Shown here: piece by piece, positions 52-19,821 of the stretch
Numbering within the stretch: the stretch's first letter is position 1
How the letters are laid out: every line of letters starts with the position of its first letter
Assembly (NCBI GenBank): GCA_039208735.1
Contig: JBCCQY010000153.1
Location: forward strand, 1-22,634
Origin: Myxococcota bacterium
GTDB lineage: Bacteria > Myxococcota_A > UBA796 > GCA-2862545
Length of the DNA stretch: 22,634 nt
Direction: 5' to 3'
Notes under the pieces: generated by a model
Seen by the model: only the letters and a program-made list of their open reading frames with translations
The model's database searches: none
What the model was told of the DNA's origin: nothing
Position numbers and translations under genes: made by a program

Positions 52-648
52 CACGACCTCGACCTCCAGCGCCACCTGCTCACCATCGAACCCGGGATCA
101 CCAAGAACAAGCGTGGACGCGTGATCCCGGTGAGCGGTCACCTCATCGAACAGCTCTCCGGCTGGCCAAGGGATACCGCCTGGCTGATCCCGTCGCCAGC
201 CAGGGGTCGGGACAGGACCCGGCAGCCGCGGCCCCGCGAGGTGGCCCTGGCGTGGCAGGACGCTGGGGTCCCGGAGCGGGTGTGGCGTGGAGCGCCGCAT
301 CATGCCTTCCGCAAGGGCTTCAAGTCGGGTCTCCTTCGTGCCGGAGCGCCACCCGACGCCGTCGACCACCTGCAGGGGCATGTGATCTCGGGCAGTCGGG
401 GGCGCTACATCGACCCCATGGTGGCCTACGACTTGGTGGAGGTGGTGGGGAAAGTCCCGGCAGTCTTACCCAACAAGAAGTCTCGCTTCTCTATCACTCC
501 ACCGTTGAGCCCCTGCACGACTTCCTGTACATCCGAGGCCTCCGCAAAGACGGAACCCGAGTCAATCACCCCGAACGCGAATGTGCCCTCGCCACCAACG
601 ACACGTAGGTCATCAAACCACTCCTCTTCATTGGCGACCAACGAGTGA
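52..648 (+). CDS. Tyrosine recombinase/integrase, C-terminal catalytic part (3' exon after the group II intron)
   Basis: Frame 1 from 52 reads HDLDLQRHLLTIEPGITKNKRGRVIPV...HAFRKGF...LQGH...RGRY, giving the catalytic K (103-105), HxxR (301-312), H (379-381) and Y (406-408). The first catalytic Arg is absent, and the in-frame TGA at 31-33 lies within the intron. Recombinase-like sequence ends near 465; the frame runs on to 648. Confidence 0.85.
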   Translation, partial: HDLDLQRHLLTIEPGITKNKRGRVIPVSGHLIEQLSGWPRDTAWLIPSPARGRDRTRQPRPREVALAWQDAGVPERVWRGAPHHAFRKGFKSGLLRAGAPPDAVDHLQGHVISGSRGRYIDPMVAYDLVEVVGKVPAVLPNKKSRFSITPPLSPCTTSCTSEASAKTEPESITPNANVPSPPTTRRSSNHSSSLATNE

Positions 649-848
649 AGCTCTGCGAGCGAGACTTCGACGGCGCCGATTTCTGTCGCGACGTCCAGTT
701 CATTCACGCGTAGCCCGTAGCCCGTAGCAAGGAGCACGTGGACCGTGGCAGAAGTATCCAGGCCGTAGTGGCGCTCCAACCGGTTCAGAAGGTCCGCCAG
801 ACACGAACGGCGACTGTCGGAGTTTGCGCGGGGAAAGCGAGCAAGCAT
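426..848 (-). CDS. Putative cognate immunity protein of the upstream polymorphic toxin (140 aa)
   Basis: ATG lies 2 nt after the toxin stop (TAG-AC-ATG on the minus strand). It is a small acidic protein in the classic toxin-immunity position. No family recognised. Confidence 0.7.
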   Translation of the reverse strand: MLARFPRANSDSRRSCLADLLNRLERHYGLDTSATVHVLLATGYGLRVNELDVATEIGAVEVSLAELHSLVANEEEWFDDLRVVGGEGTFAFGVIDSGSVFAEASDVQEVVQGLNGGVIEKRDFLLGKTAGTFPTTSTKS

Positions 849-850
849 GT

Positions 851-1201
851 CTAATCCAGTGGTTCAACAGGTTCGGGTAGTCCGCGGTGCATGCCTCCTT
901 TCGGAGCCAACTTCTCGTTCGCCGGAGTGTACTTATGCTGATGAGGGTTGGTATGGTCATCCGGAAAACCATGATCTCCGAAGTCGATGTCTCGCGTTGG
1001 CTGAAGGTTTCCGTTCGAACCAACCTCCCAAGTTCGTGCCTGCGGGGTCCCGTCCCTCCCAACCCCGAGCGGAGTATGCGGAAGATTCGTGTCGGGTACG
1101 GGGTCGCCGTGCTTCGTGCGCGGGAGGCGGCGAGAGGGGTCTCCTCCCCGGCCAACACCAGGTGCTACATCGAACTTCCCAAGGACCTTGTCGCCACACC
1201 C
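851..1201 (-). other. C-terminal toxin domain, Ntox24-like predicted RNase (116 aa after HN)
   Basis: LPRTKHGDPVPDTNLPHTPLG...QARTW...PTRDIDFGDHGFPDDHTNPHQH resembles the Ntox24 pattern PHTxLG...RDIDFxDHGxP...NPHQH as recalled; not searched. Confidence 0.75.
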
Positions 1202-4200
1202 ATTGTGGACCAGGACACCATCACCATCGCCAGCCGGCGCACGAACATAGTAGTTGTGGGAGCCCTCGACCTCAAAGTTGAAGACCTCGAAGTCGCCCTC
1301 GCGCCGGTTCATCGACGCGACGCGCGCCTCACCGCCACCCACCGTCCGAAGAACAGTCCCCACTTCGAGATCTGCCATGGCCACGTAGTCGCCGACCTCA
1401 GGGACCCAGAACGGATGCTCGGGTGTGCCGGTGATGGTCTCGGAGCCGCCGGGTCTCGTGACCACGAGGTCGATGACCACGTCGGACTGACGCACGTGCG
1501 TCTCGTAGACACGGCCAAGCACGTCGCCGGTAGAGCGAACCTCGATGAGCCCATCGCCATCGGCGTCAGCGGTCTCGAACACGCGGCCCTGGAACGCGAA
1601 CCGCTCCCCGGCCTCCACCGCGCCGAGCTTCCAGTGACCAGCCTGGTCGGCCTCACCGATCACCAGCACCCAGTCGTCGGTGCCTGGCACCCGGGTCGCC
1701 GCCTCCGCCGTCCACGTCGCATCGGCTTCGGTAAGTTCCTCGACCGTCGCTTCGCCGCGGTCCTCGACCCCATCGTCGGTCCAGCGAAGGAGCCGACCGT
1801 CGTCGAACCACATGTCCCCGACCTCGAGCTCGGCCCCGAGTGCCTCGGACCAGTCCCCGGTCCGCGCATCGTAGACCTGGACCACCTCGTCGGCCGCCGG
1901 AAACTCGGGCTCCACGCCACACGCTGCCAGCGCCACCATCGCCGGCATCGCCCACTTCGGCGTCCATGCCGTCACCCGGTCGCAGACCCCGCGCGGAGCC
2001 CACGCGCCGCGCTCCTCGACCGGCGCATCCTCCACCTCGACCCAGAGCTCCGCAACCCCATTCGTGGAGGCGGCGGCCGCACCGTCTCTCGTTTCATTCA
2101 ACTCGCTATCTGATTTTGGTAACCGTGCCCTTCCGAATGGCGAGTTCGCCAAAACGATGCCCCCAGGATCAATATCTCGAATTGGACTGGCCCAATCTTG
2201 GATTTTTGGTTCTCGTATTGCTGAATTGGCTACCCACGTCGCATCCACATTGCCAAGCTCGGCCACGGTCACTTCGCCGCGGTCTTCGATTCCAAGGTTC
2301 GTCCAGCGCCAAAGGTGTCCGTGGTCCACCCATGTGGCTCCGACCTCCAGCTCGGCCCCGACTGACTCCTCCCAGTGATCGGATGGCCCGTCGTAAATCT
2401 CAATCACCTGGTTTTCGCCTGGCGGTTTCGGGGCCGTGTCGCACGCTGCCAGCGCGACCATCCCCGGCAGGGCCCATCTCGGTGCCCATGCTCTGATGAG
2501 TTCGCACACGCCGCGATGATTAGGAGGGCCACCCGCATCTGCAGCGGAACTTTCTATCTCCACCCAAGGTTCCTTTTCGACGGCTCCAGCATCTTCGACC
2601 TTTGATGCAATGACTCGACTTCCGATTCGGACGTCACGAATGCTGACACTGCCGCTCGGCGTAGCCACGCGTACGGACTCCACGAAGCACTTGCAGCCGG
2701 AGCGTTTCAACGCACTGCGCGCGGATTCGATGGCATCGAGCGCTTTTCCGGCGGATTTGATACCCTTCTTCGATGTTTTGAGAGCCACCGCGACGTAGCC
2801 ACCGGCCACTCCCGCTGTGAACACGTCGGCCCCAACACTGATGATGCCAACTGTGTAGTCGAAGGTGGTGTACTCCTCTCCAGTGATCACGTTCCTTCCC
2901 GCAATCAGATTCGCAGCCTCTTTGAAGCTGGACAGGAAGGGAATCGGAACTAAGTCAATCCCCGAATCAAGAACGTTCAACCCGACCTGACTTGCAATTC
3001 GGCCAATTTGGCTGGCCTTTGGTTGACCAGGATTCGGAGACAGTCCCTTGGACTGCGGGTCGAGACTTGGACCCAGAAGGCCCCTTTCGGCGTCTTGCAC
3101 GTTCGAATCGACAGGCGAGGATGCCATCGCGAGTCGCATCCGAGTCAGTGTTGTGCCCGGTGCTCGCTTCTGCTTTTCGGTTGGGCCACCTTCTTGACCC
3201 GTACCGTTCTGGGGAGCTGCTGGAGCGGCTTCGGAAGCCTGCTCGCCGACTTCGCCTTCACCTTCGTCGCCCGCGTCGCTCTGGCCTGGAGCCTCCGAGT
3301 CTTCTCCTTCAAAGGCTGCAGAGACATAGACTCTGCCACCTTCCTCTTCGATTTCCTCACCGTCGTCATTGTCGTTCTTGGACTCAGTCTTTCCGGACCC
3401 CTCTTCACCCTTGCTCCGTTTTCCACCCAGCCCAAAGCCCTGATTTGCGGCCTTGTCGTTGACGTCCCAAAGCGGATCGTCGTTAGACCGCCCTCGGACG
3501 TAGACTTTGAAGCACTCCGTGCTACAAGTGACGAAGTAAGAGCCCTTCTCGTCTCGAGCCAATTGGCCGTTTCGATCTTGAAAACGTACGGGATTGTTGA
3601 ATCCGTATCGGTATAAATCGGTGCTGCCACCTTCGAAGCCAATCGGGTCAGGCGTTGTAAAGCGTCCGAGCAGTTGGTCGTACACCCGGACGCCGGCGTG
3701 GCTCAGTCCTGTCGCGATGTTGGTCTGCATTTGGTGGAAACCGAGTTCAGGCCCTTGCAGCGAACCCCCATCGCGGTCAAGTCCCCATGCGTTCAAAGGA
3801 CGCCAGCTGATGGAACCGTTTGGGGCAATCAGGATGGGATTGCCCTCGACTCCTATCACAACCGACGTTATCTCACTGTTTTGGCCCACTTGTGCAACGA
3901 CATCGTCCCCGACGAAGATGTTGTCCTCAATCGCACCACCGGGATGCTCGGTCTCGAGTACATGGCCGTCTCCTCCAGGGAGATAGTACGTTGTCTGGCC
4001 ATTCTCGGTCTTCGCGACCCGAACGCCATCTGCCCCATAGACCGATGTTTCGTTGTTTCCGGGAACCCCGGTGAGTTCATGGTGCAGGTTGTAGATGAGG
4101 GTGAGACCCGCAGACGAGATCTCCTGGCGTCCAAATTCATCCCAAGCCACTTGGATCGTACCCAATCCCGTCCGATTGACGGTGGAAACTCGGTCCGAAT

Positions 4201-7200
4201 TGCCGAAGCCAAAGGAAGTCATGGATTGAGCGCTTCCATGGTTCTCGGTCATCGAAACGCGATTTCCAGAGCTATCGTAGGTGTACCGGAACACATCCGC
4301 ATCTGGCGCCACTGTGGAGGGCCCGCAATCTGAGAAGTGGTTGGCGTGGCACTCGAATGTCACGAAGCCCCGCTCGTTGTATTCATAGAACGCGTCCTTC
4401 ACCGGGGGTGCACCCGCATGGATTGTGCGGTCGATCGATGTCAGATACCCGAGTGCGTCGAATGTGTAGTTCTCGGTCAGCTCCTGACGGGCGCCTGCTG
4501 GACCTATCTCGAGTTCACGATGACGGAGTCGGTGCGTTGCGGCGTCGTACCCGTGCTCGATGCGAACGCTGGAGAGGAGGCCTGGCGCCAACTCGATGTT
4601 TCGCGCGCGACCGTCTGCGTCGTAGCCTTGAGGTACGTCGTAAATCAGCTGATCGATGGAGGCGTTCGTGGCGTGGGTCAGTCGAATCTGAGAAAGCCTG
4701 TTGCTGCCTGGCTCGTAGGTATAGTTGGCGATATTACCGGAAGGGTATTCAACCGACTTCAACCGCCCGTTCTTGAAGTGGGCGAAGGTGGCGCCCAGGG
4801 TCTTGCCCGGCAGATCGACCGCCCTGGCCTCGAGGTCACCCAAGTCTCCGTAACTCCAACGTAAGCTGGATTTCAGCACGCCATCCTCGGATCGATCGGC
4901 CTTTGTGACGCGGCCTAGTGAGTCGTACGTGATGAAATCCGATTCCAGCGTGGTCGTGACCGTGGGGCGGGATTTCACCACGCTTTGCATTCGGTGGTAC
5001 CGTTCGAGGGTGTAAGCTGTCCGGATGGGCGTCGCTCCGCCCTCTAGCATTTCAGTCACAACCGGAAACGTGGCGTCATAGGTGTATTGACGCGTGGTGA
5101 TGTCTTGCATTGCAACGGAAGTCAACAATCCAAGGCCATCTCCAGCGTAGGTATAGTGGGTCCTTTGTTGGTTTCCGTCGGTCAGTATCGCTAGGCGTCC
5201 GCCAAGGGTGTAGTCACGTTCAAGAACTTCGCTGGGACAGGTTGTTGGGTCTTGGCGACACGTTGCGAGGCTTGAAGGGGCAACCCAGTCACTTGAACGC
5301 CATAACCGAGGACTGCCTGGTTGATAGTCCATGGTCCGGATTCGGAGTACTTGTCCGGGAGTCGAAGCGGCGCGTTCGTCCTCGGCGGATTTGCGGCCGA
5401 AGGAATCGAAGTGCGAAACGGTGAGTGTATTGGGCGATTCGATGAGGTGCACGCGCCCCATCCCGTCGGTATAGCGTCGCTCAAAGTTTCCAAGTGGCGA
5501 GATGACGGTAACCGTCTCGCTGTTCAACGGCAGACCGGTGATCGGACTCGTTACCCCTCGTTCGTAAATGATGTTGGTCCAGGATGGGCCACCCGGAGGC
5601 AGCACGGCCGACACCCGACCCATGAAATCGTGGCGTTGGCAACTGACCAAACCGTCTTCGTCCACCTCTCGAGTGACTCGACCACCTCGGTCGTACCCCG
5701 TAGCCGTGGTCGTCAGCACCGAGCCGTTTGCTGCGCGAACGGTGGTGGCTGTAGGCCAGCCTAGGTTGTTGAGAGTAAATTCCTCACGGACCCCCAAACC
5801 GTCTTCGATGGCGGTGAGGCGATGCCCAGCATTGTATTCGGCCTTGGTCGTAACGAGGGCATTGTTGGCTACAGGATCGTAGCCTTCTAGCAGTTCGGTG
5901 ATGCGATCAAAGTGATCGTACCGGTACTTTGTGACATCGCCTGCCTGCTCGATCCAATCCAGGCGTCCAAGGTCATCATAGGCACGTCGGGAGACTCGAC
6001 GCTTGGTGCTCGGGTTGTTTCCCAGCGTCTCGTCGAGAGGCCGTCCGAGCGCGTCGTAGGTGAACCCATGGGTCACGCCATCCGGATCACGAGTTTCGGT
6101 GAGGTATCCTCGCGCATCATAGGTCGACGTCCAGACCGCTTGAGATTCGCTTCCAAACTGACGGGTTTCGCGGATGGCCCGGTCGAACAGATCATATTCA
6201 ATCGTTCGAACCGCTAAGGCCCCATCGTAGGTCCTTTCGAGACGACTGGGACGCCCTTGGTCATCGTACTGGTGCCGAAGCTCCGTGCCGTCTGGCATCG
6301 TGACTTTCCAAGGCTGTCCCCACGCAAGTTGCCAGTGGATTAGCTCGTTGTTGTTTCCATCCGTTTCGATGACCCTGCGGTTGGGGTAAGGTCCAGCCAT
6401 GTATTCGCGAGTCAGCGACACTTCGCTTCGTACAAGTCCTCCGCTAGGTGCATATTCTTCGTGCCGGATCGACTCGAGACGACCCTGGCCATCGTAAGTC
6501 GTAAGCGTCTCGGTGCCATCAGGCGCCCGGACGCGCCCCTCTTGGTCGTTAAGGTTATAGAAGTAGTGGGTCTCGAGGGTTGTAGATTCTTCTGTTCCGT
6601 CACATTGAGTGACCCGAATCGAGGCATCCTCTTTCTTCGCCAGTCGCCCGTACCCATCGTAGGTCAGGTAGGTGTTCTCGCCTGAAGCATCGATCAGTTG
6701 TTTGACCCGCTTGTACCGATCGAACCGCTCAGACCGTTGAAACACCCAGGCATTCGTGTCAGGGTTCCAGCTCTCGACCTCCTTTGCCAGAGTACTAATT
6801 GATGTCCGCTGCTGCCGAGACATCGACCCGTTCACTTCCCGAGTGATGGTCCAGGTCAAACCCCGTGTGGTTTGGATTTCGGAGCCATCGGGGCGGACCA
6901 GTTTGGTCCTGCGGTCGAGGTCATCGTATTCGTAGGACCAGCTTGGAGGGGCGTTGTTCGACGGGTCGTGCCAGTCCGTTCGAACATCGAGTCGACCCTC
7001 GCTGTCAAACGAGGCGGTTCGAATCGAGTGCACGCCGGAGTTTGTGGCACATGCAAATGTCGTGTCGAGGCGATTGGACCACGGGCAAGTCATGGGATCC
7101 GAACAGACCGGCTGCCACTCGCAGATCTCTTCCTTGGTGACGCGACCCCAACTGTCGCGGAACGTCTTTACCAACGCGTAGACGCCGGTGTCGTGCTCCC

Positions 7201-10200
7201 ACAGTAGGACCTCGTCGGGGGCATCGATTGGCAGTCCGTCATTGTCGAAGTGTCGGACTCCCCGATCAATCGACAGCACCCCTGTGGGCGTTTGTGCGCC
7301 ATCAACCTCGCGAACGACTCGGCGCAGGCCGTCGTAGCTATAGCTCTTGGTCAAGCCCGCATCATCGATCGTCGAGACGACCCGGCAATGGTCGTCGTAC
7401 GAGGTGATGACCTCGGAATCCCCCCTTGTGTTTCGCGTCACGCCGCAGTGTCCGTATTCCAAAGCAAGGAGTTCACCTTGAGGTGGCTCCATGGTTTCGA
7501 GCTGTCCACGTGCCGTATAGCTGCGTTTGAACTCCCTAAGCGAGCTGACCGTACCATCTGGCAACACGGTGTCTTCGCTGGGGACCTCGGAAGATAGGGT
7601 CCACTTCGAACCCTGATAGGGGTAGAGACCGGCATTGTGGTACACAACGCGCCGTTCGATGTTCCGCACGGTCCCAGGTACGGGTACATCACTCTCTGTG
7701 ACTGACTCGAGGCGGTATCCATCGAACCCACCACCAGGGGGATAGTAGGTATAGTCGATCATCCGACTGTCTTCGCGCGTGGTCACGTCTCGGTAGTACC
7801 GAACGACGTCAAGACGACGAACGTCCTGCCAGTCCGCTTCGGTGACATAAAAGCGATAGTCGGTGATTGGAACCGGTGTGACGTTGACAGCACCAAGGCC
7901 GAAATCCATGGAATCGTCGGGCGGAACAAAGGTCGATGAACCGCCACCGCCAGGTGGCTCGATGGCATTGTCGAACTGCTCCAGTTCATCTCGGGCAACC
8001 TTCTCGAGCCAATCGATGTGGGCTTCGAAGCGGCCCTGGGCCTCCACGGTTGAGAGGATCGAAGCGGGAGGCACCTGGTCGTAGCGTCGTCGCAATCGCT
8101 TCACCGCGTGCCCGAACGACTCCAAACGTGCAGTTTGAGCCGGATCAAGAGAGTTGAGGGAGGTCCGGATGAGTTCAAGGCGGCGCCCACTCCGGACCTG
8201 ATCTCTGGTCGAGTTACGAATATCCAGTCGTTCGGCCGTGATGCCGTTCTGTAGATGGTTGTCGAAGGTTGTGCCAGGTTCATCTTCAGGTGCGGCGGTA
8301 TTGCCACTGCCATTGTGTTCACCGGCCCATTCGAGGCAGGTGGCAATGAACTCAAGACGGTTTGCGGAAACGGAAGCCGCATCATCGGGGGATTCGAAAG
8401 TACAGATACGTCGAATGCCTACCTTATAAGGAGAAGCAATGTCACCCGGGAAGCCTGCGACAAGACCCGATGAGCCATGAAGGTACACCTTAATCCGCTT
8501 CAGCGAACCATCTTGGCGATACAGTTCATCGGTTTGCTTGCGCCCCTTGAGCGCCAGTGACGTATTGAATGTCTGCACTTCAACTGCACCAGAAGGTCGC
8601 TGCGTAGCGATTCTGCCCCAACCTAGAAACTCACCGAAGCCGTAGTTCCCTTCAGCGTACTCGAAATTGAAGTGGCCATCAGACCGAGTGACGGACAGCA
8701 AGACCGGCAAGCTTACGGGTCCATTGTCTTCAGCGTGCGCCGCCGATCGGCCCCATGTCAGCGCCATCGTGCCCCCGGAGGGCACCTTTACGGACGTGAG
8801 CCAACCCTGGCTCTCGGTACGCTGATTGCGGCGCCAAACCAGGTCGGTGTTGACTGGCCATGGGGTGTTCGTGTTGCCTGTGTCGGGTCCAATGTCGGAA
8901 ACGTAGTTGGGCCCCCTGAAGCCATCTGCGAATCCATCTCCATTGAGATCCACCATGCCCGAGACCATTCCCGAAACTGGCAATGGACCAATCCAATCGA
9001 GGGGGACTTCCTCGCCAAGGTTGGCCGCTGGAGGACACCAGAACCCCATGTTGCGGCCTTGATGCGGCAAGACGATGATTGGGTCTGCGATTGTGGTACC
9101 TCTGCACCGATTCAGCGATTCCATCCATCCGTCACCGTCGATGTCAGTCAAGCCAAAATGGTTGAGCGGGACCAGATAGGAGGCGTCGTAAGTGACTTGC
9201 TGGCCTGCGCCAGGTTGTCCCGTTGGGATGGTGTATTCCCAGGGGGCCGTGTTGTACAAGCTCGTGGTCGTGGAGTCACCACCTGTGTTATAGGGTGTGG
9301 ACTCAAACGCGCCATTGCCCCTTCCGAGGTAGATACCTTCCGTTCGACCACAGGCAGGTGCCGCGTCCCAAAACTTGGTGCCATCGCGCTGCAGCCAATC
9401 CACGTTCACGATTCGGTCGGCCAGTCCGTCTCCGTTGACGTCAGCATGCGACGTGTAGCGCCACAACCAAGACGAGGACGTGATCTCGAGAAGGGGGCCC
9501 GCTGGTCCGTCTGGGTCCGGATAGTAGCCAGGTGGGGATTGTGCACTTTGTCCCAGCTCGTTCTTGGGAATTCGCGCTTCGGTTCCCATTCCAGGAGCCA
9601 TGCAGTCTGTGCCGTTTCCAAACACGCCCGAATCGATCACGGGATCATTGAGACTCCACGGCTGGGTGGTGTCGAAGAAGTCGGGCCCCGAGAGAAGTGC
9701 GCCCGTGTTGGGGTACCAAGTTTCTTGGTCGACCAAGTCGGGCGCGCCATCTCCATTGATGTCTGCCAGCTGACGGTTACCAATCACGAAGTTCGTAACG
9801 AGCGCCGGCTCAACGAAGCCTTCAGGCGTGCCGAGCTGGATGATCAACGGCCCGATGAGGTCGGCATAGCCGTCTTGGTTGAGATCCGCGATGTGGAGTT
9901 CCCGCGGCTTCATTGGTCCCATAAAGTTCATGAGCGCCGTGGAGAAGGCAGACGAGTAAACGAAGCGAGGCGTGCCATCTGCGAGTGGTCGGTTGAGGAA
10001 TATGCGATGGTCTGGACTGTTGGGAGACCCCCACTCATTGAAGACAATAAGGTCGGGAAGTGCGTCGCCATCGATGTCTTGCGTGAGCGTCGACGTCGAT
10101 GCCTGATCGTTGTGTTCGCTTGTGAACAGTTCGCTGGTGACTCCAGGCGGCGACAAGTCCATCGGCGCTGTCATGGTTTCATCCAAGACCTGAAGGGGAG

Positions 10201-11305
10201 CTTCTGAGGCGAACGTCGCTGTTCCTGTGTAGCTCGAGTCGTGGTACCCGTACTCGCGCAGAACCAGGTCATTGCCATCGAACAGTCCGGAATCGTCCAG
10301 GCCCTTCTGTACTACGCGCTGCAACACAGATTGCCGCGTCGGCCCCAATTCGGTGTACTCGAGCATGTAGTGATAGACGGCTCGGTCAACACCGTTCACA
10401 CGAGTTGAAACTCGGACGCCGCGGAGCCGGGAGTCGAGGGGCCTGCACTCCTGGTTCGAACAATCCATGCGTTCGTCGCTTCGTCCTTCGTAGGAGAAGT
10501 CAATCCGGAAGTCATTTGACCCTGAGATGTTGTAGCGAATCTGCGTAATCCTAGGCATATGCGAAGAGGCCTGATCGTAGTTGTACTCGATGGAGTTTCC
10601 GAACTCGTCGGCCTCCGTTTTGAGGTACCATCGAACGGATTCGCAAGGGACCTCTGTTCCTACGACCCCATTCGTGTCACATATTGAGCTGCTGTGGTTG
10701 CCATAGCGCTTGGTGATTCCGTCACGAGTTGCGGTCCACGCAAGGCCATTGTTTTCGTTGACGAAGATCCAGCCATCTTGATGGAGAGGCAGATAGTGAA
10801 TGACTCCGCCTGGCTGAACGGCGTTGTCTTGCTGGAGGCGTTTGCCATCAAGGCGATAGGTGTCACTTTGGTCCCATCCAGGCGACCCGCCGAGAGGGCC
10901 ATGACGGCCAATCATTGAAGAGGCCTGAAGACTCCAACCTGCACCAAGAGGCCCGTTCTTGATGCTGGGCTCATAGTGGAAGCTGACGGAGGGCGTCATG
11001 CCATCTGGACTTTCGAGCACTGGGAGGGTCAGTGATAGCGACAACGCGCGCGCAGCATCCCCCTCGGAGGGGCTAATCTGCTGTGCAACAAACTGGTCGG
11101 CGTCAACAGCATCTACTCCGGCCGCCCAAGCCTGTGTCGCAGAGAGCAGGACCACCAAAGCTATGGAAATGTTATATCGAGCCAACCATCTTGAGGTTGT
11201 GACAAGTGTTCGAGGCACGCTCCGGACCGGAGTCGTCCTAGCATACACCAATCTTCCCAGAAACAAAACTTTGCGCGAACGAATCCACTCACTCACCGAG
11301 CGCAC
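851..11305 (-). CDS. Giant RHS/YD polymorphic toxin (3,484 aa): SpvB-like, FG-GAP/VCBS, TcdB-midN-like, YD repeats, RHS core, PT-TG-like, Hint, Ntox24-like toxin
   Basis: Signal-like ISIALVVLLSATQAWA. SpvB-like LTLPV..PDGMTPSVSFHY..NGPLGAGWSL. Six DxxxDG repeats. GWLTSVKVPSGG...EFLGWG. Many YDxxGR repeats. RHS core RVYDQLLGRFTTPDPIG...YRYGFNNPVRFQDRNG. Hint CF...TPEHPF...VHN. Confidence 0.93.
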   Translation of the reverse strand: MRSVSEWIRSRKVLFLGRLVYARTTPVRSVPRTLVTTSRWLARYNISIALVVLLSATQAWAAGVDAVDADQFVAQQISPSEGDAARALSLSLTLPVLESPDGMTPSVSFHYEPSIKNGPLGAGWSLQASSMIGRHGPLGGSPGWDQSDTYRLDGKRLQQDNAVQPGGVIHYLPLHQDGWIFVNENNGLAWTATRDGITKRYGNHSSSICDTNGVVGTEVPCESVRWYLKTEADEFGNSIEYNYDQASSHMPRITQIRYNISGSNDFRIDFSYEGRSDERMDCSNQECRPLDSRLRGVRVSTRVNGVDRAVYHYMLEYTELGPTRQSVLQRVVQKGLDDSGLFDGNDLVLREYGYHDSSYTGTATFASEAPLQVLDETMTAPMDLSPPGVTSELFTSEHNDQASTSTLTQDIDGDALPDLIVFNEWGSPNSPDHRIFLNRPLADGTPRFVYSSAFSTALMNFMGPMKPRELHIADLNQDGYADLIGPLIIQLGTPEGFVEPALVTNFVIGNRQLADINGDGAPDLVDQETWYPNTGALLSGPDFFDTTQPWSLNDPVIDSGVFGNGTDCMAPGMGTEARIPKNELGQSAQSPPGYYPDPDGPAGPLLEITSSSWLWRYTSHADVNGDGLADRIVNVDWLQRDGTKFWDAAPACGRTEGIYLGRGNGAFESTPYNTGGDSTTTSLYNTAPWEYTIPTGQPGAGQQVTYDASYLVPLNHFGLTDIDGDGWMESLNRCRGTTIADPIIVLPHQGRNMGFWCPPAANLGEEVPLDWIGPLPVSGMVSGMVDLNGDGFADGFRGPNYVSDIGPDTGNTNTPWPVNTDLVWRRNQRTESQGWLTSVKVPSGGTMALTWGRSAAHAEDNGPVSLPVLLSVTRSDGHFNFEYAEGNYGFGEFLGWGRIATQRPSGAVEVQTFNTSLALKGRKQTDELYRQDGSLKRIKVYLHGSSGLVAGFPGDIASPYKVGIRRICTFESPDDAASVSANRLEFIATCLEWAGEHNGSGNTAAPEDEPGTTFDNHLQNGITAERLDIRNSTRDQVRSGRRLELIRTSLNSLDPAQTARLESFGHAVKRLRRRYDQVPPASILSTVEAQGRFEAHIDWLEKVARDELEQFDNAIEPPGGGGSSTFVPPDDSMDFGLGAVNVTPVPITDYRFYVTEADWQDVRRLDVVRYYRDVTTREDSRMIDYTYYPPGGGFDGYRLESVTESDVPVPGTVRNIERRVVYHNAGLYPYQGSKWTLSSEVPSEDTVLPDGTVSSLREFKRSYTARGQLETMEPPQGELLALEYGHCGVTRNTRGDSEVITSYDDHCRVVSTIDDAGLTKSYSYDGLRRVVREVDGAQTPTGVLSIDRGVRHFDNDGLPIDAPDEVLLWEHDTGVYALVKTFRDSWGRVTKEEICEWQPVCSDPMTCPWSNRLDTTFACATNSGVHSIRTASFDSEGRLDVRTDWHDPSNNAPPSWSYEYDDLDRRTKLVRPDGSEIQTTRGLTWTITREVNGSMSRQQRTSISTLAKEVESWNPDTNAWVFQRSERFDRYKRVKQLIDASGENTYLTYDGYGRLAKKEDASIRVTQCDGTEESTTLETHYFYNLNDQEGRVRAPDGTETLTTYDGQGRLESIRHEEYAPSGGLVRSEVSLTREYMAGPYPNRRVIETDGNNNELIHWQLAWGQPWKVTMPDGTELRHQYDDQGRPSRLERTYDGALAVRTIEYDLFDRAIRETRQFGSESQAVWTSTYDARGYLTETRDPDGVTHGFTYDALGRPLDETLGNNPSTKRRVSRRAYDDLGRLDWIEQAGDVTKYRYDHFDRITELLEGYDPVANNALVTTKAEYNAGHRLTAIEDGLGVREEFTLNNLGWPTATTVRAANGSVLTTTATGYDRGGRVTREVDEDGLVSCQRHDFMGRVSAVLPPGGPSWTNIIYERGVTSPITGLPLNSETVTVISPLGNFERRYTDGMGRVHLIESPNTLTVSHFDSFGRKSAEDERAASTPGQVLRIRTMDYQPGSPRLWRSSDWVAPSSLATCRQDPTTCPSEVLERDYTLGGRLAILTDGNQQRTHYTYAGDGLGLLTSVAMQDITTRQYTYDATFPVVTEMLEGGATPIRTAYTLERYHRMQSVVKSRPTVTTTLESDFITYDSLGRVTKADRSEDGVLKSSLRWSYGDLGDLEARAVDLPGKTLGATFAHFKNGRLKSVEYPSGNIANYTYEPGSNRLSQIRLTHATNASIDQLIYDVPQGYDADGRARNIELAPGLLSSVRIEHGYDAATHRLRHRELEIGPAGARQELTENYTFDALGYLTSIDRTIHAGAPPVKDAFYEYNERGFVTFECHANHFSDCGPSTVAPDADVFRYTYDSSGNRVSMTENHGSAQSMTSFGFGNSDRVSTVNRTGLGTIQVAWDEFGRQEISSAGLTLIYNLHHELTGVPGNNETSVYGADGVRVAKTENGQTTYYLPGGDGHVLETEHPGGAIEDNIFVGDDVVAQVGQNSEITSVVIGVEGNPILIAPNGSISWRPLNAWGLDRDGGSLQGPELGFHQMQTNIATGLSHAGVRVYDQLLGRFTTPDPIGFEGGSTDLYRYGFNNPVRFQDRNGQLARDEKGSYFVTCSTECFKVYVRGRSNDDPLWDVNDKAANQGFGLGGKRSKGEEGSGKTESKNDNDDGEEIEEEGGRVYVSAAFEGEDSEAPGQSDAGDEGEGEVGEQASEAAPAAPQNGTGQEGGPTEKQKRAPGTTLTRMRLAMASSPVDSNVQDAERGLLGPSLDPQSKGLSPNPGQPKASQIGRIASQVGLNVLDSGIDLVPIPFLSSFKEAANLIAGRNVITGEEYTTFDYTVGIISVGADVFTAGVAGGYVAVALKTSKKGIKSAGKALDAIESARSALKRSGCKCFVESVRVATPSGSVSIRDVRIGSRVIASKVEDAGAVEKEPWVEIESSAADAGGPPNHRGVCELIRAWAPRWALPGMVALAACDTAPKPPGENQVIEIYDGPSDHWEESVGAELEVGATWVDHGHLWRWTNLGIEDRGEVTVAELGNVDATWVANSAIREPKIQDWASPIRDIDPGGIVLANSPFGRARLPKSDSELNETRDGAAAASTNGVAELWVEVEDAPVEERGAWAPRGVCDRVTAWTPKWAMPAMVALAACGVEPEFPAADEVVQVYDARTGDWSEALGAELEVGDMWFDDGRLLRWTDDGVEDRGEATVEELTEADATWTAEAATRVPGTDDWVLVIGEADQAGHWKLGAVEAGERFAFQGRVFETADADGDGLIEVRSTGDVLGRVYETHVRQSDVVIDLVVTRPGGSETITGTPEHPFWVPEVGDYVAMADLEVGTVLRTVGGGEARVASMNRREGDFEVFNFEVEGSHNYYVRAPAGDGDGVLVHNGCGDKVLGKFDVAPGVGRGGDPSRRLPRTKHGDPVPDTNLPHTPLGVGRDGTPQARTWEVGSNGNLQPTRDIDFGDHGFPDDHTNPHQHKYTPANEKLAPKGGMHRGLPEPVEPLD
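1670..2044 (-). repeat. 125-aa module, copy 2 (inside Hint)
   Basis: WVEVED...RGVC...WAMPAMVALAAC...GAELEVG...EDRGE...DATW...DW aligns without gaps to copy 1; 63/125 identical by hand count. Confidence 0.92.
2192..2566 (-). repeat. 125-aa module, copy 1 (inside Hint)
   Basis: WVEIES...RGVC...WALPGMVALAAC...GAELEVG...EDRGE...DATW...DW. Confidence 0.92.
2780..2990 (-). other. Pre-toxin TG-like segment with hydrophobic helix
   Basis: IDLVPIPFLSSFKEAANLIAGRNVITGEEYTTFDYTVGIISVGADVFTAGVAGGYVAVAL resembles PT-TG (G.D.ITGE.L); boundaries approximate. Confidence 0.65.
8920..10080 (-). repeat. FG-GAP/VCBS Ca-binding repeats (beta-propeller) in the toxin
   Basis: DIDGDALPDL, DLNQDGYADL, DINGDGAPDL, DVNGDGLADR, DIDGDGWME, DLNGDGFADG. 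Confidence 0.85.
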
Positions 11306-11307
11306 AA

Positions 11308-11314
11308 CTCCTCC
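11308..11314 (-). promoter_or_regulatory. Shine-Dalgarno of the toxin gene
   Basis: GGAGGAG on the minus strand just upstream of GTG 11305 (alternative in-frame GTG at 11296). Confidence 0.6.
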
Positions 11315-11371
11315 AATTCTATTGTTTGTGTGTGGATGCGATGCTTACCACTTCGGCAAGTTTACTGCCAT

Positions 11372-11383
11372 TGTGAATTCACA
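11372..11383. promoter_or_regulatory. Perfect 12-bp palindrome, candidate operator upstream of the toxin
   Basis: TGTGAATTCACA in an AT-richer intergenic stretch, about 67 bp upstream of the toxin start. Confidence 0.35.
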
Positions 11384-11704
11384 TTGCGTACCTCAACAGG
11401 CCAAGTTCTGGTTGCCGTAAGCAATCTCGTTCGTTGAAACCTCATTGGGGCGCTCCTTCAGCTGTTGACTGCCCTAAGCAGCGGACTCCTCCGCTGAGCC
11501 TCAGCCAGGCGCCTTAGGCAAGAGTCATGCCGGCGAATTCTTCTGTTTTCCCCATTGAAGGTTTTGACATTCGTCGGATCAGGGCTCCAGGCCCAGGTCT
11601 AGGACGGCGTTCAGGGGTGACGACAGTCGTCAGCCGACGTTCGTCAGGCTGGAGACTCCTCGGCGTCGTGCTGTCAACCCCCAACCCCTCATCAAGGCGT
11701 GACA

Positions 11705-11742: not shown

Positions 11743-12290
11743 GTAGGCCCAGTCGTGATTTGGGCGACTCGGGCGTTCTTGGGCGAGGCCGAGACCGCGT
11801 CAGCCGCTTGCGAGGGCGCCGACGTGGCATTTGAAGGCCGGCTTAGCACCGAAGCCGGTGCGCCCCGGCCTGGGCTCATGGCGTAGGGATCCGTCGGTAG
11901 CCAAACCTCGGATAGGCCTTCGCCAGTTCCCGCATTCGCTTCAACACCGGCTCGTCCTGCCTCGCCAGCACCGACACGTAGTGCACGACGCTCTCGCAAT
12001 GGCCAGCACCGCACGCCTCGCCGTTCCGAGAGGCCTCGCTCGCAAGCAAAGGCCACCGCTCGGCGCCGAGCAGGCACGCCCACCACTTTTCTTGGCCGTG
12101 ATCTCGTCGAGCACGTCGATCTCCAGCGAACGCTCCGCCAGGAGTCGCTTCAGCCGTGCATTCTCGCGCTCGAGCTTCAGCAACCGTCGCGTGTCGTCCG
12201 GTGTCATCGTGCCGAACCGCTTCCGCCACTCGTACGCAGCTTGCGCACTGCAATTGCATCTTCGCCATTCTGGCACCGAGCTGGCGTCCC
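11743..12290 (-). pseudogene. Degenerate IS3-family transposase (orfA plus 5' orfB) with several frameshifts, a stop and truncation before the DDE core
   Basis: orfA reads YEWRKRFGTMTPDDTRRLLKLERENARLKRLLAERSLEIDVLDE. orfB pieces in shifting frames read VGVPARRRAVAFACERGLSERR / DEPVLKRMRELAKAYPRFGYRRI / HRL.C*AGLQMPRRRPRKR..SRPRP / NHDWAY. Confidence 0.88.
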
Positions 12291-12364
12291 GGAGGGGGGG
12301 GGCTCTCGAAGAAGTCCTCTCCCCTCCAGGTCGTGCAACCTACGTCTTGGTCGCCAAATCGCTG

Positions 12365-12928
12365 CTAGGGATTCGTTCGGCCTCTAACTAGAAATCCTCG
12401 TTCATCACCGAACGGGCCCACTTCGGCCCTGGCTTCGCAGTTGGTCGAAAACGCCACATCCGTTTGGCAATTGAAGACCGCTTCGACTTCGACCGAGCTC
12501 TTCGCGGGAATCGCTACGGTAGCCAGGAAGTCCCTCGGCTCGTCGGCGGGGCGGGACCGGAAGCCCACGGGCGATCCGATGTCGTCGAGCGCATCACACC
12601 GCACGACCGAGATCGATCCATCTTCGTCGGTGTTGTTCACGAACTCGATCGTCCCGGCAGTCAGATTTGCGCAGTTCTGTTCGTTGAACACGAACTCGCA
12701 GCAGGTCGAGTTGTCAATCACGATCTCGATGGGCTCGACATCGACCTTGCCGGTGTCGCCCTGATTCCGGCACAGCACACCACCGCACGACTCGTCGTCG
12801 CAGTCGATCAGTCCGTCGCCGTCGTTGTCGATTTCATCGTCGCAGATTTCGGGGTCGGGCCGGTCCATCGGCTCAACGGTCACACAACCCACGAGTCCCC
12901 AAAGCAAAACAAGCATTCGTGTCCTCAC
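12365..12928 (-). CDS. Lipoprotein with a Cys/Asp-rich putative metal-binding (MopE-like) motif
   Basis: Lipobox MRTRMLVLLWGLVGC. Motif EICDDEIDNDGDGLIDCDDESC. GTGA overlap with the upstream stop. Confidence 0.8.
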   Translation of the reverse strand: MRTRMLVLLWGLVGCVTVEPMDRPDPEICDDEIDNDGDGLIDCDDESCGGVLCRNQGDTGKVDVEPIEIVIDNSTCCEFVFNEQNCANLTAGTIEFVNNTDEDGSISVVRCDALDDIGSPVGFRSRPADEPRDFLATVAIPAKSSVEVEAVFNCQTDVAFSTNCEARAEVGPFGDERGFLVRGRTNP

Positions 12929-17616: not shown

Positions 17617-19821
17617 CTACGGAGCGACCGACCAGATGGCCGGGGCCATGGCGACCGAGGGCCCACCATCGACCGACGCAGCGAGCGGGCCAGTGGCGAA
17701 TCGACCGGCAAAGGTGGCAACGACAGGAACCGAGACCTCGATGACCTCACCCGGCTGGAACGGCGCAGTTCGGACTACGACTTCGTCGGCGAAACTGCGC
17801 ACGGTGGCCCGCGGAGGCGCCGAGACCGAAGGCACACGGACACCAGCCGGCAGCGGCTGGCGAACCTCGACCGAGGCCCCGGAAGGCGCCGCGATGGCCA
17901 CCCGCCATTCCCCGGCTCGGCCCACCTCGAGTCCGCGCAATTCGACATCCAAATCGACGCCAGGGATGCGGTCATTCGAGCGCCACGGCACATAGCTTCG
18001 GCGCGTGGCCACGACGACGACGCCCGGCGCAGGGGGCTCGGCGCCGATCGACAGGGTGGTGCCCGGCGACTCGGGGGTCAGCTCGAACCTTGCCGGCACG
18101 CGCGGTTGGGTCGGATCAAGTCTGGCGGAGCCAACCGTCTGGTCTCCACGCCGCAATGTCAACGCCACAGGGCCCTCTTGCGGAGGAAGCGCGCGGGCGA
18201 TCGCATCAAGGGCGACCCCGTTGGCCGCTCCTGCCCCGAACCCCTGGTCGGCCCGCCACATCCCAAGCAGGCTTGAAACCAGTTCACCGCCGAGATCGTC
18301 ATCGGCATCAAGCGCCAAGACCGCCCACGCGACGGCCTCCGCCGGAGAGGGTACGCCTCCCTGGGCGTTGTGGACCCCCTCCGGGAGCTTCACCAACCCC
18401 TCTTCGACCGCCTCGCGAATGCGCGTTTGGAGCGGCGGACGAGCATCTTCGGGAACGAGGTCCGCGGCGAGCACCACCGACGCGGTAAACGGGTCCTCGA
18501 TCGAACCAAGGCCCCGTTCGATGGCACCAGAGGCCCGCAGTCGGGCTCCGCGCTCATCCGTCGGCAACACTCGAGCCGCCACCGCGGTCTGAACCAACAC
18601 TTGCTGCAGCGTTGACCGCTCTGTACGCGACCACGTGCCATCCGTGCGCTGGGCATTCACGACCTGCCGAACCAGCCGAGGCTTCAACGCATCGACCAAT
18701 TCATCGCCCTGCACCTTGTCAAGCGCGGTGAGCAAGTCCGCCGCGAATCCATGGGACGGCGCCTGGGCCATTTGGGCAATCCGCTGCCACGCCTGCACGC
18801 GGAGCTGCTTTTGTCGAGCTTCATCGAAGGGGACCCCGGAGGCCTCGGCAAACCGGACCACGTGCGCGGACAAGGCAAACCCGTAGGCCGGATCGACGGG
18901 TCGGGCCCCGGCGGCCAAGCGTTCCACTTCGGCCTCGAGCACCGACCAGGGACCCCCAAACACCACCACGTCAATGCGCTCGGTCGTCGGGTCGGCCCCC
19001 GGAGGCGCGGTGAGGATGAACGGCGTAGGCGACAATCGACGCGACTGCGTCTGGACGACCGGCCGCCCTGTCGGCAACACGGTCAAGGTGCGTTCGGCGG
19101 CGTCGGCGTAGGGTCCGGCCTCGACCTCGGCGCGCAAGGTGGCCGATCCCGCGCCCCGCGCCACCAGTCGGATGCGTCGCACATCAGAGCCCCCCGCCGT
19201 CAACGCGACATCGGCCGTGCCAGACCCTGAAAGGGCCCCGTCCGAGGTGATGTCGACCGTGGCACGATGGGGTTCTGAAGTGCCATTGACGACCTGAACC
19301 GGCAGATCGATCCGATCCCCGGTGAAGAGTCGATCCGGCACGACGGGGTCCACATAGACGGGAAGCCGGGTTTGAAATCGATGGGTTGTTCCCGCCTGTT
19401 GGCCTTGGCGATCATGGGCCAAGGCCAACACCCGGAAGCCTGACAGCTGGTCCGGCACCCGTACATCGACCTCGGCGACTCCGTCGTCGCCCGTTTCGAC
19501 CAAGGGACGCCACAGAAAGGCTTCGGGAAACCAAGCTCGCGCCGGCGGCTCAGCCTGGCCTCCTTTCGCTCCATCGGCTGGGGGCGCAGACGCAGCTGGC
19601 GGACGGCGCGGAGCAAGCTTGTTGCTGATCGAAGAGGTGCTTTGGCCTAGTCCCCCTCCGCCTCCCAGCGGCTGAAGCGCCTCCAGATCTTCCTCAATCT
19701 CAGCCTCATTCGCCGCAGGCAGCGCCGCCATGTCGTACAACACTGCCTCGTCGGGCGCGGCGACCTGCGCCAGTTCGGGCGCTGAGTTCGAGCATCCGGT
19801 GGCAATGAGGAGCCAGCGCAT
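17617..19821 (-). CDS. Alpha-2-macroglobulin family protein, C-terminal half (734 aa; possible lipoprotein; no thioester)
   Basis: ATG 19821 overlaps the upstream TGA (TGATG) and has a GGAG RBS. RAWFPEAFLWRP...VRVPDQLSGFRVLALA, PDRLFTGDRIDLPVQVVN, helical QRTDGTW region, QPLPAG. Confidence 0.85.
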   Translation of the reverse strand: MRWLLIATGCSNSAPELAQVAAPDEAVLYDMAALPAANEAEIEEDLEALQPLGGGGGLGQSTSSISNKLAPRRPPAASAPPADGAKGGQAEPPARAWFPEAFLWRPLVETGDDGVAEVDVRVPDQLSGFRVLALAHDRQGQQAGTTHRFQTRLPVYVDPVVPDRLFTGDRIDLPVQVVNGTSEPHRATVDITSDGALSGSGTADVALTAGGSDVRRIRLVARGAGSATLRAEVEAGPYADAAERTLTVLPTGRPVVQTQSRRLSPTPFILTAPPGADPTTERIDVVVFGGPWSVLEAEVERLAAGARPVDPAYGFALSAHVVRFAEASGVPFDEARQKQLRVQAWQRIAQMAQAPSHGFAADLLTALDKVQGDELVDALKPRLVRQVVNAQRTDGTWSRTERSTLQQVLVQTAVAARVLPTDERGARLRASGAIERGLGSIEDPFTASVVLAADLVPEDARPPLQTRIREAVEEGLVKLPEGVHNAQGGVPSPAEAVAWAVLALDADDDLGGELVSSLLGMWRADQGFGAGAANGVALDAIARALPPQEGPVALTLRRGDQTVGSARLDPTQPRVPARFELTPESPGTTLSIGAEPPAPGVVVVATRRSYVPWRSNDRIPGVDLDVELRGLEVGRAGEWRVAIAAPSGASVEVRQPLPAGVRVPSVSAPPRATVRSFADEVVVRTAPFQPGEVIEVSVPVVATFAGRFATGPLAASVDGGPSVAMAPAIWSVAP

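Follow-up and report, generated by a model that had tools for sequence, protein, structure and literature searches.

A pre-toxin Hint domain interrupted after residue 30 in a Myxococcota RHS toxin gene, and its possible origin in a two-protein system

Pre-toxin Hint domains are usually viewed as one-piece proteases that release a toxin, and Hint cleavage without a +1 nucleophile occurs. PMC3482391 proposes the pre-toxin HINT as a toxin-releasing peptidase. Other described systems that come near the locus reported here are natural atypically split inteins such as VidaL and PolB16, whose N-terminal fragment (IntN) has 15 to 37 amino acids (aa) (PMC13014065); SitA toxins, with a lipoprotein signal, a conserved N-region, a variable C-terminal toxin, and an immunity gene on mobile DNA (PMC8546572); and orphan toxin-immunity cassettes that recombine onto Rhs/CDI genes by 3′ replacement behind a homology box (PMC3482391; 10.64898/2026.07.13.738213, the latter treating ordinary Rhs-CT exchange). 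Here we describe an RHS/YD-repeat toxin gene (851..11305, minus strand; 3484 aa) on a Myxococcota contig of 22,634 nucleotides (JBCCQY010000153.1, contig C153 of its genome), the whole of which is called the window. The encoded protein comprises SpvB-N, FG-GAP, RHS repeats, a weak PT-TG match, a Hint domain, and a toxin, and near aa 46 to 61 of its N-terminal region a hydrophobic, signal-like stretch is seen by eye. The Hint domain is interrupted after residue 30, and we lean, if only slightly, toward the view that what interrupts it is the leading portion of a toxin protein with a signal peptide and that the window holds the fused form of a two-protein system.

The window Hint spans 496 aa. 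Block A Cys1, the block B TxxH, block F, and the terminal His-Asn are all present, TIGR01443 scores above its cut-off, and immediately behind the domain come a variable toxin domain and an immunity gene. The Hint N-part (2600..2689, minus strand, as are all parts of the domain given below; residues 1 to 30, with Cys1 at aa 2873, nucleotide [nt] 2689) scores 36 bits against the family HintN hidden Markov model (HMM), and Pfam places Hint_2 at residues 1 to 29. The Hint C-part (1202..1513) holds TPEH (block B; Hint residues 422 to 425, aa 3294, nt 1426), block F, and the His-Asn end (residues 495 and 496; aa 3368, nt 1202), followed by Gly at +1; positions 35 to 136 of the PT-HINT profile match at residues 394 to 496. 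Between the two parts lies an insert of ~360 aa, at about residues 31 to 392 and ahead of block B, where the sequence-only reading had put it; a Pfam scan found no endonuclease family there, in agreement with that reading. The two 125-aa copies that it had described within a 496-aa domain were also borne out: the best ungapped self-diagonal pairs residues 42 to 166 with 216 to 340, at a period of 174 aa, with 63 of 125 residues identical (241 of 375 at the DNA level), against 22 of 125 in the best of 2000 shuffles. Copy 1 (2192..2566) consists of a linker, a signal-like helix from C62 to C83, and the first beta repeat alone; its third-position GC content (GC3) is 0.62, like that of the RHS body. 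Copy 2 (1670..2044) has the same order of linker, signal-like helix (C236 to C257, nt 1919 to 1984), and first beta repeat. An all-beta core domain with two internal repeats (1520..1903, residues 263 to 390) overlaps copy 2 and takes in the 52-aa tail that follows it. The 125-aa repeat is not the unit of the family, which is ~175 to 190 aa long with the tail included, and the 49-aa linker between the copies is not homologous to that tail.

The conserved residues and the position before a toxin and its immunity gene are shared with PT-HINT (PF07591) and BIL domains such as C. thermocellum 2lwy. The window Hint differs from these in its interruption, its length exceeding that of a compact, contiguous PT-HINT domain of ~137 aa; in addition, relatives that lack the N-part start with a signal peptide, and one relative has the N-part on a separate RHS gene. 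Nor does it resemble a homing intein, since no endonuclease lies between blocks B and F and the +1 residue is Gly rather than Cys, Ser, or Thr; with Gly at +1, splicing is not expected. The break lies near the N-terminus at a position comparable to that of the atypically split inteins (PMC13014065), and fragment complementation is likewise predicted here, but the toxin context, the likely exported halves, the beta domain before the C-part, and the fusion in the window set it apart. We found no description of this Hint insert or of a split pre-toxin Hint in the literature, with the proviso that the supplements of PMC3482391 may list such architectures, and no paper combining split Hint, Rhs toxin, and trans-splicing; the terms sought do not occur in 10.1101/2023.06.07.544157. 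The insert and the split layout are thus a variant of pre-toxin Hint systems that we did not find described.

The 496-aa domain as a query gave 48 matches, mostly with coverage of at most about 59%, in the order N-part, one insert, C-part, and variable toxin, and homologues near in sequence bear the source names Myxococcales or Myxococcota. The norm in this family is a single insert made of a linker, a helix flanked by two Cys with a lipobox-like end, and a core of ~125 aa. An exhaustive core search returned 114 representatives, 109 of which hold the core by HMM; the Hint C-part follows the core directly in 85 of the 91 with room for it. P0123 and P0126 have the core and no Hint C-part, and the start of P0123 is, we presume, a SEC-C-like motif. 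The core is patchy (6 of 61 relatives, 7 of 401 genomes of the phylum, and, with a broader profile, 10 of 154 in the order). Next to nearly identical Hint C-parts its copy number is 0, about 0.5, 1, or about 1.5 to 2: P0046, the second Hint of P0022, and G088 are insert free; P0041, G013, and G079 have only the second beta repeat before the C-part, with the N-part present too; most relatives have one insert; and the window and P0051 have it doubled. A metagenome scan added at least one locus, viral contigs gave no core relative and 1 generic Hint, and plasmids gave 3 records with the Hint C-part only. In G013:C1 (L030:7260-9950), what by eye is an IS66-like element interrupts the insert, with the signal-like helix on one side of it and the core on the other, and at 26171-28234 of G000:C64 a non-RHS protein has an ordinary short Hint right behind a signal-like segment.

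Modeled alone, the core formed two small beta units (pLDDT 88, pTM 0.81) that are repeats of each other (HHalign 94.6%, E 6.6e-8). In each unit a short motif bears a weak resemblance to the helix-strand motif of Hint (HHalign probability 48% and 18%); a reading of the insert as a whole nested dead Hint was not adopted, the likeness being short and at motif level. Pfam returned just EF-hand-like loop matches (E ~0.05, in 5 of 24 rows), the best match among PDB sequences had an E of 0.21, and Foldseek gave nothing at E ≤0.001. The best VIA-wide match was an intein (Z 3.8, rmsd 3.1, 47 aligned), none reached Z ≥5, and the rows covered mainly residues 1 to 57; Atlas held no usable match for the core, P0043 giving generic PT-HINT clusters only. 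The module therefore matches no described domain in these five resources, which falls short of showing that the core is a new fold; the beta core may have a binding role. The claim of the sequence-only reading that this is an unusual Hint subfamily with an accessory domain holds in part: the subfamily is real and the domain undescribed, but the view of the module as a plain inserted accessory found no support: the insert matches the N-terminus of separate signal-peptide proteins that have no Hint N-part.

These signal-type proteins account for 35 of the 109 core representatives (33 after two visible miscalls); 24 have the N-part, 15 are partial fused forms, and 35 are fragments or unclear. Their order is a basic-hydrophobic signal, a linker, the core, the Hint C-part, and a toxin, with no Hint N-part. 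Median peak hydrophobicity was 2.48 in 38 hand-picked signal-type proteins and 1.78 in 28 fused linkers. A pattern count found a lipobox-like Cys in 18 of the 38, some of which may be misplaced. Of 29 fused linkers, 25 fit a lipobox-like pattern, and in 2 of these the Cys that fits lies further upstream. Fused relatives retain the hydrophobic helix and Cys, and the fused signal is probably a weakened vestige. The +1 residue varies among signal-type proteins, which points to cleavage rather than splicing. NCBIfam matched only intein_Cterm, in 3 of 4 signal-type proteins.

A layout with the N-fragment and C-fragment on separate genes, which the window lacks (there they form one frame), is present in G159:C3 (L065:3-10022). 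There, a 2939-codon RHS frame with a signal-like N-terminus ends ~70 aa past an intact Hint N-part of ~30 aa with Cys1 (HMM E 3e-7; Pfam Hint_2 at 2839-2877), and its tail contains a W-x-E-V motif resembling the window's linker. A signal-type gene encoding a signal peptide, the core, the Hint C-part, and a toxin begins 45 bp behind this frame, and three in-frame stops and a stretch like a ribosome binding site (RBS) lie between the two. This stretch had no cover in runs X1 to X3.

In a two-chain model, residues 1 to 35 were predicted to dock on residues 263 to 496 with a score of 0.89, whereas the highest of 3 controls scored 0.00; contacts agreed by at least 93% between runs, and the partner's pLDDT was at least 84. 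The mark for docking, which is roughly applicable here, was reached by 116 of 157 solved pairs and 2 of 215 mismatched pairs. Block A is thus predicted to fold with the C-terminal Hint part, as the sequence-only reading had supposed. A single-chain model matched 2lwy (Z 17.2, rmsd 1.8, 124 residues) and used residues 163 to 182 as the N strands, with low confidence for residues 1 to 95; residues 163 onward aligned to Hint residue 10/11 onward, an outcome biased by the alignment, which had put the relatives' N-parts there, and so not independent. Cys1 is found only in the N-part at residues 1 to 30 and not in the leftover segment at residues 168 to 182.

Taken together, these observations would fit a scheme in which the N-part at the end of an RHS carrier binds the Hint C-part of an exported partner, completing the cutter and freeing the toxin. 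The halves of split relatives would meet after export. In the window, residues 1 to 30 are predicted to pair with 393 to 496 with the core looped out, and cleavage at Asn496 would free the 116-aa toxin. The core could be a docking or escort domain, or an aid to target entry, by analogy with the escort domains of SitA.

Several points weigh against the fused two-protein reading. Foremost, the two-gene layout was seen at one locus only: no second split locus was found in 5 named genomes, a further count gave 0/225, and other searches likewise yielded none. Upstream context is available for the signal-type gene of G159 alone, because in G243, the other such locus, the gene begins where the contig ends; the G159 arrangement could, moreover, be a fused gene that has broken or two genes adjacent by chance. 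In six representatives no C-part follows the core. On the structural side, the docking pass may reflect likeness to solved inteins, and the single-chain model picked residues 163 to 182 rather than 1 to 30. Finally, the second core repeat is itself weakly N-part-like over 17 columns of the 48% HHalign match, and signal-type proteins might, judging from this likeness, complete their own Hint without a partner.

The last point underlies the most serious alternative, which we regard as unlikely but deserving of weight, namely, that signal-type relatives are self-sufficient lipoprotein toxins, acting in the manner of SitA toxins transferred by outer membrane exchange, in which the second core repeat replaces the N-part, and that RHS genes captured them whole through recombination at the Hint, the window's insert being a mere leftover of the capture and no split enzyme being involved. 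The second repeat both resembles the Hint N-part and occupies its expected place. According to PMC8546572, SitA toxins are modular lipoproteins on mobile DNA, and by description the signal-type relatives resemble them in layout, with a putative lipoprotein signal; SitA escort domains are ~375 aa, against a ~125-aa core plus Hint C-part here, and the word "intein" is absent from that paper. A quick tree of 65 rows (38 signal-type and 27 fused, fragments and unclear rows left out) grouped the labels, with 3 changes against 20.9 when shuffled, and had signal-type rows on either side of the midpoint, and these proteins range over deeper diversity. That the tree is unrooted, requires 3 changes of label, and is subject to confounding through mosaic recombination also tells against the fused two-protein reading. 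Arrays of orphan Hint C-part-toxin cassettes stand by the same metallophosphoesterase-like gene in G171:C12 and G182:C82 (L116, L117), and no RHS gene lies within the 20-kb regions read. However, the core folds confidently alone, forms with N-part, second repeat, and C-part together exist (P0041, G013, and G079), the N-part docks in the two-chain model with the core present, and the G159 RHS frame ends in an intact N-part with Cys1.

A further alternative, rather improbable in our view, is that the fused chain is a polyprotein in which the internal helix and Cys remain functional as a lipoprotein signal; the chain would be cut by the cell in two, an RHS-N-part that is anchored and a core-C-part-toxin that is lipidated, and the two would then associate. 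Both Cys are kept in both window copies, and in a single frame of G087:C612 (L128:16-1050) the N-part is followed by a Cys-helix-RRRR segment and, after that, by a complete hydrophobic signal that includes a Cys. PMC11980579 describes the MYXO-CTERM tag as a Cys motif, a transmembrane helix, and an Arg cluster; the MYXO-CTERM model gave 16.4 bits on G087, below its cut-off of 20, and G087 also has a sub-cut-off match to NF058595 invert_tail. The window helices are, however, short and Pro-containing, with scores of 1.3 and 2.0, and neither matches a sorting signal; MYXO-CTERM gave no match in either window copy or in the G159 tail. The orientation would also be wrong for a lone helix that follows an exported RHS body.

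The sequence-only reading suggested that the accessory domain could gate autocleavage or bind a receptor or membrane. That the doubling is a functional feature found no support: the two copies form a chimera of two diverged cassettes, and relatives vary in copy number. Cassettes on contig C3 and in G002 match copy 2 at 87, 83, and 84% DNA identity, but copy 1 matches it at 66%. GC3 runs from 0.54 to 0.64 across the RHS body, the N-part, and copy 1, is 0.43 within the linker, and reaches 0.86 once the AAAST codons begin; at these codons (2058..2077), the left boundary of the cassette, or L site, DNA likeness to other cassettes begins. Between the copies, residues 168 to 182 (2144..2188) score as positions 15 to 29 of a leftover second Hint N-part (9.7 bits, against 6.1 for the best of 1000 shuffles) and not as a tail. 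Because of these identities, the GC3 step, and the leftover N-part score, the doubling is read as a likely scar of recombination from toxin-cassette swapping. An older RHS gene with tandem insert-bearing Hints would have undergone an in-frame loss that took away tail 1, C-part 1, and the opening 14 residues of N-part 2. In G002:C165, two complete insert-bearing Hints stand in tandem in a single frame, and a deletion that started where the first beta repeat ends and reached position 14 of the second N-part would convert that layout into the window's. The region from the L site onward would then have been replaced by a toxin-immunity cassette carried on a small integrase element, the chances of a site-specific mode and of homology over the ~900-bp insert being about even. 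Another full RHS-Hint of the genome has a 36-aa spacer before its L site like the window's spacer (G000:C3, 140374-140475).

Tandem duplication in place was rejected on the ground that copy 2 has closer matches at other loci than in copy 1, and the related proposal that a tandem duplicate was kept since two copies better gate cleavage or bind a receptor is highly improbable. Both copies are open, copy 1 keeps most consensus residues (60 versus 87 bits), and a second duplication exists in P0051; but copy 1 has no second repeat, the two duplications are broken at different points, and insert-free and half-insert forms occur. The second copy in P0051 starts with the element-side flank described below, and this start would fit a deletion across an element of that type (G021). 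Unitigs of run X1, which is possibly the source sample and hence not independent biology, tile 1276-3400 with 0 differences, and no unitig is shown for 992-1193. That the doubling is an artefact of metagenome-bin assembly is scarcely credible: the cassette is repeated in the genome (C3, C107, C7, and C192), the contig breaks off close by, and the unitigs do not fix which toxin follows copy 2, but record 6 (2016-2345, 330 bp, 0 differences) spans copy 1, the linker, and the start of copy 2, and the nearest other match to copy 1 in the genome is only 62%.

The likeness between cassettes starts abruptly at the AAAST codons. Across 11 sites, which are related sequences, column identity is 0.27 to 0.73 before the boundary and mostly 0.9 to 1.0 over the first 19 bases after it. 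At the other end, ten cassettes finish, past the likely immunity gene, in a stretch of ~35 bp that is the integrase 3′ end; in the window a convergent tyrosine integrase (52..459, plus strand; 3′ part, truncated by the contig start) ends in a stretch whose reverse complement is this conserved R site (424..458, minus strand). Unrelated convergent genes end in the same 10 codons at window 424-458 and in G000 on C3, C5, C7, C107 (twice), and C212; genes with this ending are immunity-type or, by eye, a SEL1-like one, and the stretch often persists without an integrase. In G000:C3, a reverse-transcriptase-like sequence (142090-142950), probably of group II intron type by its motif, interrupts the integrase remnant. 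The window integrase is 82 to 91% identical to integrases adjoining other Hint cassettes. Among 154 genomes there were 25 integrase matches; a Hint cassette lay beside 5 of the 6 at ≥70% identity, the sixth being at a contig start, and within 1.5 kb of 0 of the 19 weaker ones.

In G021:C8 (L028:8567-16300), a 6.1-kb integrase-resolvase-VapE element lies between two L sites with cassettes on both sides, in the order RHS, N-part, L site, EndoU-toxin cassette, integrase, resolvase, VapE, second L site, and Ntox10 cassette. Both L sites share a base found in no other site, and metagenome locus L003 repeats the order VapE, flank, L site, insert. Of the 154 genomes, 2 have close VapE relatives, and no Hint accompanies the second. 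The G021 layout is what one would expect had a circle with the 3′ part of the gene integrated and displaced the resident toxin downstream. The order would be the same whether integration was site-specific or homologous, and the two are therefore not separable here. Recombination between R and L sites, which share a CCRCCRCCTCCAC core, found no support, as 0 of 14 R-left matches run into the right arm of L. Unlike orphan-cassette exchange as described in the sources cited above, the homology box here begins sharply inside the Hint, and in G021 the cassette adjoins an element that has repeats on either side. Arrival by this route has its own counterevidence: conservation of the L site is no higher than that of the following ~15 codons, the full element was seen once (G021), and the window contig ends inside the integrase and shows the left side only.

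The domain at the toxin position (854..1201, minus strand; 116 aa) occurs on other RHS proteins too and had no match in a Pfam/NCBIfam scan; its His-rich end is reminiscent, we presume, of small RNase-type toxins. The 140-aa gene behind it (426..848, minus strand), whose last codons lie inside the R site, is likely an immunity gene, called by position and shared ending. Upstream of the RHS gene, a short remnant at 11876-12391, by eye an IS3-type transposase, forms the edge of a lower-GC island (GC 54 to 60% over 2500-11500 versus 63 to 70% past 13000). Two neighboring genes at 17617-22634 (minus strand) are, by eye, alpha-2-macroglobulin-like, followed by cytochrome c peroxidase-like, signal peptidase II, kinase-like, and thiopurine methyltransferase-like genes. 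The window DNA was present in one run, a marine metagenome, with no RNA run listed as containing it, and belongs to a bin of 9.4 Mb with 64% GC.

The duplication alone is of modest significance. A wider proposal, which we offer tentatively as possible though somewhat short of probable, is that Myxococcota use a split pre-toxin Hint as a coupling between an N-part carrier and interchangeable C-part lipoprotein toxins, that docking both loads the toxin and arms its release, and that in one marine family the halves are fused and an integrase element swaps toxins at the seam. The G021 element suggests a concrete route of RHS toxin switching that leaves orphan cassettes. If the proposal is true, these would be new short-IntN split Hints working outside the cytoplasm, together with a small beta domain of unrecognized fold; cleavage only once the halves meet would act as a safety catch, and one delivery scaffold would be paired with many toxins at the protein level.

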